Assembly: GCA_017624735.1 (NCBI GenBank)
Contig: JAGAMK010000057.1
Location: 1-11,887 of the forward strand
DNA from: Clostridia bacterium
Lineage (GTDB): Bacteria; Bacillota; Clostridia; Oscillospirales; Acutalibacteraceae
Reading direction: 5' to 3'
Length of the DNA: 11,887 nucleotides
The notes under the pieces were generated by a model that was given only the letters and a program-made list of their open reading frames with translations, was not told the origin of the DNA and searched no databases. The position numbers were made by a program, and so were the translations under genes. Numbering within the stretch: the first letter of the stretch is position 1; each line of letters begins with the position of its first letter. Positions 2,806-4,830 of this stretch are shown here, in pieces.

Positions 2806-4047
2806 GTGAAAATAAAACAGGTTATCAAAGAAACAGGTCTTACTGACAGAGCAATAAGACTTTATATTGAAAATGACCTTGTAAAACCCGAATGTGACGA
2901 AAATTACAATGGCAGAAAAAGTATTGACTTTTCTGAAAATGATGTTTAACAACTAAAAAATATCGCTTTGCTCCGTAAAGCAGATTTTTCAATTCAAGAA
3001 ATCAAAGCCTTGCAAATGGGTGGCGAAACTGCACAACAAACAGTTAAAGAATACATAAACAGAACAAACGAAAAGATACGGTTCAATAGTGAAATAATTG
3101 AAAAAATCGGCACTCTTGCAAACGAAGAAAATATCACAGTTGAAATAATCTGTGAAAGACTTTCAACCAATTTAGCGGACGAAAAAGTACCAACAGAAGA
3201 CATGGAACTCTCACCCAAGGAACAGAAAGAGAAACACGTTTTTACAGCAATTTCTGTAATCGGCATGGTGTTGTCGTGTGGTTCAATGATACTGATACTA
3301 TTGCTGGTTGTGTTTGGATTTGGATATAAATATACCGAGTTCCTTCCTTATGATACAGATTTTGTACGTAAACTGATTTTTTATCCGATACAATACTTTT
3401 TTTTAATACAATTTGTGTTGTGTTTAATAATATATTTGTTCTGTAAAAAGAAGAAAAAAATAGGCAAGAAAAAAGATAGAAAAAAAGCTCTATGCATTTT
3501 TATTACAATTTTATGGGTAATATCATTGCTATTCTCACCATTCGCATTTCTGTTACATCTTATAGCTGGATATTGCTCAATAACATCTAATCCCAATAAC
3601 TATTTAGTGGTGGATGAAGAATATTTGAAATACGAGTGGGAAGAAATTTTTCAAGTTTTTCCATACAAGATGCCTGATTCAGTAAAGCAAATTGTGTATA
3701 GTAAAAACTCTACAACCAAGTATTTTTATGCTTACTCTGATGAGTTTTTAGACGCTTATAGAATGGATATATATGCAGAGTGGCAGCTTGACCATAATAC
3801 GGAATCAATATATGAAAGTGATTATGAAAAAGAAAAGCAAAGAATACTAAGTAAAGATAATATTGTCTGTATAGAGTCTATGGGAGATTGGCAGTGTGTT
3901 CATTTTAAAAATAAAAGAGATGTTACAGAGGCTATGTGCGATTATGAATATCTGTTTTTTGCCTATAATGATGAAACACATACCGTAAGATATATTGCTG
4001 AGTTTGGGTATAAAACAGACCCATATCACTTACAATTAGATTGGTAA
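2806..4047 (+). pseudogene. MerR-family HTH regulator fused to a 3-TM membrane region and an uncharacterised ~150-aa C-terminal domain. The frame is interrupted by one in-frame TAA at 2947-2949.
   Basis: From GTG 2806: VKIKQVIKETGLTDRAIRLYIENDLVKPECDENYNGRKSIDFSENDV*QLKNIALLRKADFSIQEIKAL. This is one continuous MerR HTH-wing-helix motif in the same frame (pos mod 3 = 1) as ORF-track 2968..4047. No SD precedes TTG 2968. Hydrophobic segments: VFTAISVIGMVLSCGSMILILLLVVFGFG, LIFYPIQYFFLIQFVLCLIIYLF, ALCIFITILWVISLLFSPFAFLLHLIAGY. Confidence 0.7.
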
Positions 4048-4049
4048 CT

Positions 4050-4078
4050 AAGCGTGGTCTTTGACCACGCTTTTCTTC
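4050..4078 (+). terminator. Rho-independent terminator after the MerR-TM gene
   Basis: 9-bp stem AGCGTGGTC (4051-4059) / GACCACGCT (4063-4071), loop TTT, then TTTCTTCG. Confidence 0.75.
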
Positions 4079-4122
4079 GTGTCAAAATATTATATAAAAT
4101 TGAATTTATCGGGGAGATTAAA

Positions 4123-4203
4123 TGTAGGGGCGGATGCCCACATCCGCCCGCAATAAGTTTATATATAAACCAAAACGGGACGATGTGGGCATCGTCCCCT
4201 ACA
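4123..4203. repeat. 81-bp composite palindromic (REP/MITE-like) element: two 28-nt inverted arms, each itself a 9-bp GC-rich hairpin, around a 25-nt AT-rich spacer
   Basis: Left arm TGTAGGGGCGGATGCCCACATCCGCCCG (4123-4150). The reverse complement of the right arm (4176-4203) is TGTAGGGGACGATGCCCACATCGTCCCG, a 24/28 match. The 4 differences are two compensated pairs within each local stem. Confidence 0.7.
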
Positions 4204-4322
4204 ATTTCTGCTGAATTTAATACTCAAACATCCCGACAAACTCCAATTTACCTAATCGTTTTCAACTTTCCGTTTTTCACTTTACATTTTTTAATTCCCA
4301 CTAAATTTATATGAATTAACTC

Positions 4323-4351
4323 TTGAATTCCTACTAATTTTGTAGTATATT
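4323..4351 (+). promoter_or_regulatory. Candidate sigma-A promoter for the Rrf2-metH unit, with overlapping repeat motifs
   Basis: -35 TTGAAT (4323-4328), 17-bp spacer, -10 TATATT (4346-4351). TACTA-N6-TAGTA (4332-4347) overlaps the spacer and -10. Confidence 0.45.
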
Positions 4352-4395
4352 ATTTCAGTAACAAAAAACAATACTCTAAAAAAGGTGTAGATACA

Positions 4396-4830
4396 ATGAA
4401 AATCTCAACAAAAGGCAGATATGCGCTTCGCCTTATGACCGATTTGGCAATTCATAAGGATGATGGATATATCTCAATAAAAACCGTGTCACAACGTCAG
4501 GGTATCAGCGAAAAATACCTTGAACAGATTATTAAAATGCTTGCAAAAGAAAACTTTGTTGAAAGCATTCGCGGTGCTCAGGGCGGATACCGACTCACTC
4601 GCGAACCTATCGAATATACAGTAGGCGAAATTCTTCGTGTAACAGAGGGTAGCCTTGCTCCTGTCGCTTGCCTTGCAACGGACGAAAATACTTGTGAGAA
4701 CTGTATGGACTGCGTAACCCTTGAAATTTGGCAATGTGTCCTTGATGCAGTCAATAAGGTTGTCGATTCAATTACTTTGCAATATCTCGTTGACAAACAG
4801 AAAGAAAAGGGGAATTGCGGATGTTGTTAA
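4396..4830 (+). CDS. Rrf2-family transcriptional regulator (IscR/CymR-like), Cys-rich and probably Fe-S binding
   Basis: MKISTKGRYALRLMTDLA...ISEKYLEQIIKMLAKENFVESIRGAQGGYRLTR is the canonical Rrf2 winged-helix domain. Cys cluster: ACLATDENTCENCMDC. C-terminal tail: GNCGCC. Confidence 0.9.
   Translation: MKISTKGRYALRLMTDLAIHKDDGYISIKTVSQRQGISEKYLEQIIKMLAKENFVESIRGAQGGYRLTREPIEYTVGEILRVTEGSLAPVACLATDENTCENCMDCVTLEIWQCVLDAVNKVVDSITLQYLVDKQKEKGNCGCC

Follow-up and report, generated by a model that had tools for sequence, protein, structure and literature searches.

The 81-bp palindrome at positions 4123-4203 of the window is a REP doublet of the REPIN or BIME kind, composed of two GTAG-tagged REPs in inverted orientation, and this pair is the core of a 154-bp unit of which the genome contains at least six copies, each copied as a whole. 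The REP family is widespread in gut and rumen Oscillospirales-type Clostridia. We regard it as probable that the doublet comes from a RAYT-linked family, that it has been orphaned in this genome and that it now forms the core of a unit with two distinct ends. The window is the whole stretch of DNA that was analysed (11,887 nt), contig C49 of a draft assembly of 2.04 Mb with 36.9% G+C, 69 contigs and 97.5% completeness; other contigs of this assembly are numbered with C and genomes of the same genus with G.

Background

REP hairpins, familiar from E. coli and Pseudomonas, are selfish repeats. To our knowledge, work on REP/RAYT systems has been confined almost entirely to Proteobacteria and Cyanobacteria, and there is barely any description of them in Clostridia. 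In REPs of the GTAG class, as set out in the available text of two sources (PMC3733652, PMC6006769), an unpaired tetranucleotide (GTAG or GTGG) lies 0-2 nt 5' of a GC-rich hairpin with basal G-C pairs; these elements are extragenic and often stand in inverted pairs. An inverted REP pair with a short spacer is called a REPIN in the accessible part of Bertels and Rainey 2011 (PMC3116915).

Structure of the palindrome

The window reads TGTAGGGGCGGATGCCCACATCCGCCCG, 25 nt and then CGGGACGATGTGGGCATCGTCCCCTACA over positions 4123-4203, and the two inverted 28-nt arms (4123-4150 and 4176-4203) match at 24 of 28 positions, as the initial annotation had reported. A repeat search extends them to 31-nt arms with 84% complementarity and a 25-nt gap, which is the longest inverted repeat in the window. 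The 81-bp outline stands, but the REPs proper are slightly shorter than these arms, the spacer between them is 27 nt (Table 1) and the repeated unit is larger than the palindrome.

Both arms have a 9-bp stem, a 4-nt loop, a GGG/CCC base and a GTAG that directly abuts the stem, and each is able to fold alone, as had been proposed: as single-stranded DNA, arm A (GGGCGGATG/CCCA/CATCCGCCC) gives -12.0 kcal/mol (shuffle z -4.8) and arm B (GGGACGATG/TGGG/CATCGTCCC on the window strand) gives -10.2 kcal/mol (shuffle z -4.9). The whole 81-mer, folded as DNA, makes a single long hairpin of -26.7 kcal/mol (z -7.6) with the 27-nt spacer at its tip; since the two small hairpins together come near this energy, both conformations are open to it.

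Table 1. Features in and around the repeat, in window coordinates
Feature	Position	Strand	Remarks
Intrinsic terminator of upstream gene (2968..4047)	4050..4078	+	AAGCGTGGTC-TTT-GACCACGCTT, then TTCTT; hairpin 4050-4072; outside the repeat
Spurious 86-codon ORF	4054..4314	+	Read-through of hairpins; translation has CRGGCPHPPA and GTMWASSPT, the REP arms as protein
End 1, type-1 terminal inverted repeat	4096..4114	+	AAAATTGAATTTATCG, then GGG; copy homology begins here
REP arm A	4124..4149	+	GTAG + GGGCGGATG / CCCA / CATCCGCCC
Spacer between REPs	4150..4176	.	AT-rich, 27 nt; includes small palindrome TTTATATATAAA
REP arm B	4177..4202	-	GTAG + GGGACGATG / CCCA / CATCGTCCC (minus-strand reading), then GTTTTGGTTT
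Right linker	4203..4233	+	AATTTCTGCTGAATTTAATACTCAAACATCC; common to the C53:29014 and C10:45687 copies
End 2, type-2 terminal inverted repeat	4234..4249	+	CGACAAACTCCAATTT
Degenerate GTTTTGCACTTTGCA-type module	4257..4285	+	cgttttcaactttccgtttttcactttaca; just outside end 2; missing from the empty site of G063
Promoter-like site TTGAAT-17-TATATT	4323..4351	+	Of Rrf2-family gene (4396..4830); left untouched by the insert; conserved in all relatives compared

The arms are of unlike subtypes, CGGATG in A and ACGATG in B, and their four differences amount to two compensated pairs at stem positions 4 and 5 (C-G and G-C against A-T and C-G). It is plausible that unlike arms would keep each hairpin intact yet weaken the long perfect palindrome, which replication tolerates poorly. 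The compensated changes had been taken as covariation and, from that, as a sign that structure is selected rather than sequence. The covariation extends to the family: among 65 distinct 26-mer members from the genus, the four unconstrained stem positions provide 260 cells, of which 225 are Watson-Crick, whereas shuffles reach 103 +/- 7 (maximum 131). Positions 4 and 5 show four pair types across the 65 members. Covariation of this strength indicates that structure is what is kept, but compensatory change in quasi-palindromes also arises by template-switch mutation, and selection is not proven by covariation alone.

A 98-nt extension of the palindrome, folded as RNA, reaches z values of -9.3 and -9.6 on the two strands, with none of 200 shuffles as good. 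Folds of this stability on both strands (z about -9), together with the covariation, could be the mark of a small structured RNA gene, and we hold this to be very improbable. Equal folding of the two strands is what a DNA palindrome would give; moreover, a scan of positions 3900-4500 against Rfam 15 (E up to 10) returned sub-threshold noise only, the best match having 24 bits against a gathering score of 52.7, and the candidate was dropped. The sole promoter-like match nearby (4061-4088) spans the terminator hairpin and was taken as chance, such matches being no commoner than in shuffles, and the copies lie in either orientation relative to genes. The same sequence is also translated inside RAYT genes, as described below. 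The ORF across the element is, as had been suspected, a by-product of the hairpins: both of the peptide segments listed in Table 1 fall within non-coding repeat DNA.

A REP family in this genome and in congeners

GTAGGGG followed by a hairpin recurs across the genome. The loose pattern GTAGGGGNNGNNGNNNNCNNCNNCCC, in which four stem positions are left free on both sides, has 28 matches here and 0-143 in about 60 congeners, as compared with 0-1 for a reversed-pattern control. GTAG abuts the stem in all 28 matches of this genome and is retained in solitary copies too; besides the 28 copies of this stem/loop format, other GTAG-hairpin subtypes are present. All but one of 29 hairpins are intergenic, in a genome in which long ORFs leave only about a tenth of the DNA non-coding (~90% coding). 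The attributes of a REP are thus all present, namely the GTAG foot, a GC-rich stem within the 7-20-bp range with a loop within 2-5 nt, basal G-C pairs, multiple copies and an extragenic location, and the REP/BIME-like assignment of the initial annotation is borne out by these features and by inverted doublets here and in relatives. A total of 28 copies is low in comparison with the >100 typical of Proteobacteria.

The full A/B pair exists in six copies that are 94-100% identical (C49, C53 twice, C15, C10 and C34), and the spacer is identical or nearly so in all of them; diverged pairs are found at C14, C64 and C18. With 28 hairpins and six near-identical pairs the element is not single-copy, so a merely local double terminator, which had been named as the alternative, fails as an explanation. 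Allowing at most one stem mismatch, arm A has seven copies in this genome, every one paired with arm B, and arm B (at most one mismatch) has 19; unlike arms make up 10 of the 11 pairs. Here is an inverted doublet with a short spacer that is replicated as a unit, as in a REPIN, with a replicated unit larger than the doublet.

The same A/B pair is also present in G002, G005, G018 and G063, and arm B is most numerous in G052 (86 copies); G065 has 46 and G076 has 34. Named Oscillospirales-type genomes contain the exact arm-B 26-mer in 120 stretches or more, and its hosts, among the matches listed, include Oscillospiraceae, Acutalibacteraceae, Ruminococcus, Faecousia, Fimenecus, Ructibacterium, Sporobacter and others.

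The 154-bp unit and its two ends

When copies were aligned with their flanks, homology spanned 4096-4249, stopping at AAAATTGAATTTATCG on the left and at CGACAAACTCCAATTT on the right. Identity therefore ends at outer inverted ends and not at the REP feet, which implies that the last-copied unit is not a plain REPIN. The pair lies inside a unit with terminal inverted repeats of 16-20 bp, common to about 60 elements, and the suggestion that the element is MITE-like was well founded in this respect. Between arm B and end 2, the copies at C53:42130 and C15:4774 carry a longer module instead of the right linker.

The end motif occurs about 130 times in this genome, 47 times as an exact match, and it was found in 28 of 61 genus genomes including the source genome, which has the most. 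Complete framed elements number 28 and measure 148-365 bp; their interiors are unrelated mosaics of REP pairs, CTCCCCTTTCAGGGGAG-type hairpins and GTTTTGCACTTTGCA runs, and many of the cores inside the same ends have no GTAG hairpin. Each of the 24 elements that could be classified has one type-1 end (AAATTTGAATTTGTCG) and one type-2 end (AAATTGGAGTTTGTCG), which gives the frame a polarity like that of transposon ends. Many contigs start or stop about 125 nt inside a framed element, a sign that the assembly was broken by copies that are recent and identical. Arm-B pairs of G052 are framed as well, by variant ends. This two-ended frame, with its many hairpin cores, is a layer of organization that is new here.

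The outer ends were also considered as a directly duplicated target hairpin, and this was rejected because they are truly inverted and of two types, although the G011 site that has no C10 unit retains a single AAATTGAATTTGTC for which the rejection gives no account. Framed elements tend to lie near other hairpins: 11 of the 28, the window copy among them, are 14-30 nt from a perfect GC-rich hairpin, against 2% of random genome positions, a comparison for which an intergenic control would be fairer.

Another reading, which partly overlaps the one that we prefer, takes the framed MITE-like unit of 154 bp as the mobile thing, moved in trans by a putative transposase that reads AAATTTGAATTTGTCG and AAATTGGAGTTTGTCG, with the REP pair as just one among several interchangeable cargoes; we consider it a serious possibility that falls somewhat short of an even chance. 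It accounts for the exact stop of homology at the ends in all six copies, for the abundance of ends around quite different cores, for the uniform polarity, for the contig breaks and for the framing of REP pairs in G052. Units are missing at orthologous sites of G011, and the frame proliferated in a genome with no small RAYT (see below), both as this reading would have it. Six near-identical copies in such a genome call for a recent mover; this counts against the preferred reading, as do the end of identity at the outer ends and the many framed cores with no GTAG hairpin. On the other hand, the target-site duplications that the initial annotation proposed to record were not found: the flanks of the 28 complete elements show no direct repeats, only a preference for R-T after the end. 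This genome, its small contigs and about 1 Mb of fetched loci yielded no autonomous or other long element bounded by these ends, and no transposase-bearing contig was seen among the small contigs of the assembly. End-motif counts show no link to the sole Y1 gene of this genome, a TIRYT-like gene of 250 aa, and REP pairs and single REPs are also found outside any frame (C18:31353-31415, C18:15912).

Presence, absence and changed cores at orthologous sites

The site of the window copy is empty in G063, where the terminator is joined almost directly to the promoter region and the flanking genes are intact; for G070, hit coordinates alone point to an empty site. At the same place G005 has the same ends around a wholly different core, and G007, G074 and G044/G002 have other hairpin inserts. 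The GTTTTGCACTTTGCA-type module beyond end 2 is kept at the filled sites of G005, G007, G074 and G044/G002. Moreover, the REP-pair units of C10, C15 and C14 are absent at the orthologous sites of G011, and in two further comparisons, C25 with G011 and C15 with G009, the relative has kept the ends around another core. The C53:29014 region is rearranged in relatives and its comparison was uninformative. These patterns of presence and absence, and the changed cores, indicate that units come and go and that cores change within a retained frame. Candidate routes for this are repeated insertion at a favoured spot, gene conversion among the copies and an exchange that takes place at the ends.

A bolder proposal, which we think rather unlikely, is that the frame is a persistent docking site whose hairpin cargo is exchanged. 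It is suggested by the three sites where the same ends, at the same place, hold unrelated cores (window with G005, C15 with G009, C25 with G011), and by the inner edge of each end, TGTCGGGG (sometimes TGTAG), which is almost the REP foot TGTAGGGG. If it were true, fixed frames would take up REP pairs and other GC-rich hairpin modules in turn, as cassettes of a mosaic system; this could go on multiplying after RAYT loss and would have no described counterpart.

Local setting of the window copy

The unit starts 18 nt past the T tail of the upstream terminator and ends 74 nt before the promoter-like site of the Rrf2-family gene, which precedes metH-like and cysteine desulfurase-like genes. The terminator is complete without the element, as the initial annotation had argued, and six relatives, with or without the insert, have it at the orthologous site; relatives without the insert retain both flanking genes. 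With a complete terminator on one side and the next promoter on the other, the element most likely does nothing for the genes beside it, and its local role is probably nil.

The hairpins could instead be kept for the benefit of the host, as bidirectional terminators, insulators or mRNA-stabilising 3' ends, so that their repetition would reflect selection and not mobility. We find this explanation unlikely. Solitary arm-B copies lie 5-50 nt past genes, between an A-run and a T-run (C18:15912, C37:108773, C63:1097, C31:1631), and may well terminate transcription at those places; the available text of PMC3733652 reports roles of Proteobacterial REPs in termination and mRNA stability. In the window, by contrast, arm B is terminator-like on the minus strand only, where its T-run faces no gene to terminate, and arm A has no T-run at all. 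Neither a conserved unpaired GTAG nor an exact 26-mer shared across families is needed for termination, and the empty site of G063 lies between intact genes.

RAYT genes of relatives

The initial annotation proposed a search for a RAYT or TnpA-like gene, and such genes were found in congeners but not in this genome. REP-rich relatives have small Y1 genes of 156-180 aa, traced from a weak Y1_Tnp signal. Their products show the motifs NHIHLL (HuH), WQRGYxDHIIRN or WQRxYxDHIIRN, and Y---N[PA], the catalytic motif being YI(E/V)(Y/N)N(A/P); the arm-B type has DE in place of DH. They score 59-74 bits against NF047646, 'REP-associated tyrosine transposase', which is below its cut-off of 80, and this, together with the weak PF01797 match, marks them as a divergent branch. 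When a profile of the small RAYTs was compared with solved structures, the best match was E. coli TnpA-REP 4ER8 (E 1.6e-9), ISDra2 TnpA being at 3e-3. The small RAYTs align to 4ER8 residues IWQPRFWEHAIRN, and the spacing of their WQ-x4-[DE]H-x2-R motif equals that of the residues by which 4ER8 contacts GTAG, given as W94, Q95, E100, H101 and R104 in the accessible part of PMC6006769.

Every small RAYT gene has two inverted GTAG hairpins of one subtype, separated by about 150-210 nt. In all of the genes the second hairpin is translated in frame, and in most of them so is the first; the argC-argJ type has its first hairpin just upstream of the start codon. In these genes the REPs flank the HUH motif, the first before it and the second after it. 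The hairpins in the RAYT genes of G043, G004 and G052 are exact arm B, translated as VGDDAHIVP ... GTMWASSPT. An intact arm-B RAYT is present in G052, the genome with the highest arm-B count, and G076 has one too; in G065, whose genome is 81% complete, an arm-B RAYT was not identified despite the 46 arm-B hairpins, a point against the preferred reading. Small RAYTs were found in 42 of 60 congeners, and their slots are fixed: argC-argJ, tsaC-coaE, beside a hemN-like gene and beside an aminotransferase. The protein family comprises at least 1,693 clusters in a large protein collection; cluster names are 'transposase' or 'hypothetical', and the sources are Clostridia, Oscillospiraceae, Ruminococcaceae and Candidatus Fimenecus. 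Judging from motifs and published gene layout, the partner enzymes are likely to be small class-2 Y1 HUH nucleases (RAYT/TnpA-REP), most like subclass 2.4.

Probable orphan hairpins in this genome

No small RAYT was found in the source genome by HMM, family profile or tblastn, and the latter two did not recover even a fragment. The four slots are contiguous and gene-free here (C64:4182-4235, C32:10569-10612, C22:12446-12455 and C30 after 56642), and the close relative G011 has one intact and one broken RAYT copy. The hairpins of this genome are probably orphans left by loss of the RAYT gene, a loss that is likely and not proven in a draft of 69 contigs with 97.5% completeness. Genomes with REPs and no tnpA-REP are interpreted as cases of gene loss in the available text of PMC6006769.

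The sole PF01797/Y1_Tnp match in this genome is the 250-aa gene mentioned above, located on C20. It has a C-terminal extension of about 110 residues, is without the WQ..DH..R motif and fits subclass 2.1/TIRYT as outlined in the accessible part of PMC6006769. It is flanked by CACAAGGGGACGGTTCCTTGTG hairpins (seven copies) and not by GTAG REPs, and its occurrence, in 14 of 61 congeners, is unrelated to REP or end-motif counts. With other flanking hairpins, a missing motif and unrelated counts, it was rejected as partner of the REPs.

The preferred reading, a RAYT-linked doublet that was orphaned here within a two-ended unit, can be put as a series of steps. A single-stranded arm would fold into the 9-bp hairpin; a cognate RAYT would read this hairpin with its 5' GTAG, and would nick and rejoin the DNA beside it. 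Repeated over evolutionary time, such action may have scattered hairpins into intergenic DNA, and this genome would then have lost its RAYT and kept the hairpins. As far as the available text of PMC6006769 goes, a demonstration of transposition is reported for no RAYT.

Comparison with known systems

Subclass 2.4 TnpA-REP (RAYT group 4), as presented in the available text of Quentin, Siguier, Chandler and Fichant 2018 (PMC6006769), has REPs that are inserted into its gene in frame, as a rule between HuH and Y, and occurs abundantly among Cyanobacteria and among Bacteroidetes; three basal G-C pairs are present in its canonical REPs, and 'double-foot' forms are derivable from inverted dimers. 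The family described here shares with it the GTAG foot, the three basal G-C pairs, the extragenic multi-copy hairpins that are often inverted dimers, the in-frame REPs of the RAYT gene near HuH and the existence of genomes with REPs and no tnpA-REP. The likeness is to a published description, and the hosts differ, being Oscillospirales-type Clostridia; furthermore, in the RAYT genes of the relatives the HuH motif stands between the first and the second REP, and the genomic REP pair here sits inside a frame that has inverted ends of its own.

The REPINs of Pseudomonas fluorescens, according to the accessible part of PMC3116915, are also inverted REPs with a short spacer that can form one long hairpin, the doublet being repeated with a conserved spacer. 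In contrast to them, the present doublets have no RAYT in the same genome, join arms of unlike subtypes and number about 10, not hundreds; the copied unit reaches 27 and 47 nt beyond the REPs.

The BIMEs of E. coli, with their alternating Y and Z REPs and linker motifs, are likewise mosaics of a few module types in which unlike subtypes stand inverted side by side, located between convergent or co-directional genes and after terminators. They are, however, without outer terminal inverted repeats, and the sequences are unrelated.

Bacterial MITEs such as Correia, RUP, bcr1 and ERIC resemble the framed elements as non-coding units of 150-360 bp with terminal inverted repeats of 16-20 bp, dozens of copies and presence or absence between species. 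The framed elements differ in that no target-site duplication or parent insertion sequence was found for them in this genome and the fetched loci, and in that their cores are interchangeable while the ends stay.

The initial annotation's remark that such an element is little described in Clostridia agrees with the literature at hand. The available part of the Di Nocera 2013 survey (PMC3733652) lists no Firmicutes, a literature string search with one 22-mer and two peptides found no paper in the library that contains them, and a search for work on REP/RAYT in Oscillospiraceae and similar groups gave nothing relevant among its 15 best-ranked papers. The principle of REPs inside a RAYT gene is already published, as the accessible text of PMC6006769 makes clear, and the host group is little described; what merits further work is the frame and its exchangeable cores.

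Conclusions

There is a practical side to these elements, in that the hairpins create spurious ORFs (the VGDDAHIVP and GTMWASSPT peptides) and short-read assemblies break at the framed units; both should be masked when Clostridia MAGs are annotated. For the study of REPs, the case adds a well-defined family from uncultured gut and rumen Clostridia, with one 26-mer common to several bacterial families and a partner enzyme that can be named and is testable on a 26-nt oligonucleotide. It also offers a natural contrast on how REPs persist without the enzyme, since this genome has the hairpins only and its close relatives have both.

Frame ends resemble the REP foot

The ends of the frame that bounds the 154-bp unit resemble the foot of the REP hairpins. 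At their inner edge, the frame ends of most copies have TGTCGGGG / CCCGACA (window positions 4104-4114 and 4232-4241, compared with 4123-4130), and this common inner edge is one base off the REP foot, TGTAGGGG / CCCCTACA. The inner edge of end 1 in the window deviates (ATCGGGG); exact GTAG / CTAC is present at several frame ends elsewhere in the genome, e.g. on contigs C14 (position 31338) and C25 (7041). In the close relative G011, the site lacking the framed REP-pair unit of contig C10 (locus L209, G011:C10:50900-51220) retains one AAATTGAATTTGTC, which is the outer 14 nt of a frame end and could reflect either a target preference or a footprint.

Hairpin subtypes and RAYT genes

Besides arms A and B, the genome carries two more GTAG-hairpin subtypes, GTAGGGGCAGGTCTCCGTGCCTGCCC and GGTAGGGCGGGGTCTTGACCCCGCC. 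The former is also the type embedded in the RAYT genes of three congeners (G065, G056 and G052), and the latter is often a gene terminator adjoining framed elements. In the tsaC-coaE slot, G005 has a RAYT with GGCGACGACC-type REPs (L072) and G004 has one with arm-B REPs (L074). This could mean that the RAYT and the REPs inside it changed jointly, or that one RAYT gene took the place of another in the same slot.

Some RAYT homologues show additional in-frame repeat insertions C-terminal of the HUH motif (P0038, P0057): one of these proteins has two REP-derived segments (GTMKASS...GTMRASSPT), and another contains the segment DPFVRLADISPGRGI, putatively the translation of a different GC-rich hairpin repeat.

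The 250-aa Y1 protein encoded on contig C20 is extended at its C-terminus by about 110 residues and scores 79.6 bits with NF047646, against a cut-off of 80. On both sides of its gene the hairpin CACAAGGGGACGGTTCCTTGTG is repeated several times in direct orientation; the genome has 7 copies of this hairpin in total, on C8 and C20.

Coordinates of features in the window and in the own genome (C, contig)
Feature	Position	Strand
AATTCC(C/T)ACTAA(A/T)TTT, two direct copies	window 4293-4308 and 4326-4341	
GTAG-hairpin subtypes, first site group	C5:36051, C8:20116, C8:55012, C23:6806	
GTAG-hairpin subtypes, second site group	C14:38414, C18:13483, C22:8843, C35:19673, C51:11750, C51:13140	
250-aa Y1 gene, RAYT subclass 2.1/TIRYT-like	C20:68135-68884 (L001 1117..1869)	minus
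Contig ends inside 181-bp framed elements, examples	C12:126, C14:126, C33:122, C46:126, C19:133, C22:123	

Direct repeats upstream of the Rrf2-family gene

The two direct repeats of the window lie directly upstream of, and overlap, the Rrf2-family gene's promoter-like site; both are kept in all relatives compared, and they may form an operator for the Rrf2-family regulator.

Framed elements and genome assembly

Many contig ends of the draft fall about 125 nt inside 181-bp framed elements, and the family ranks among the main causes of breaks in the assembly.
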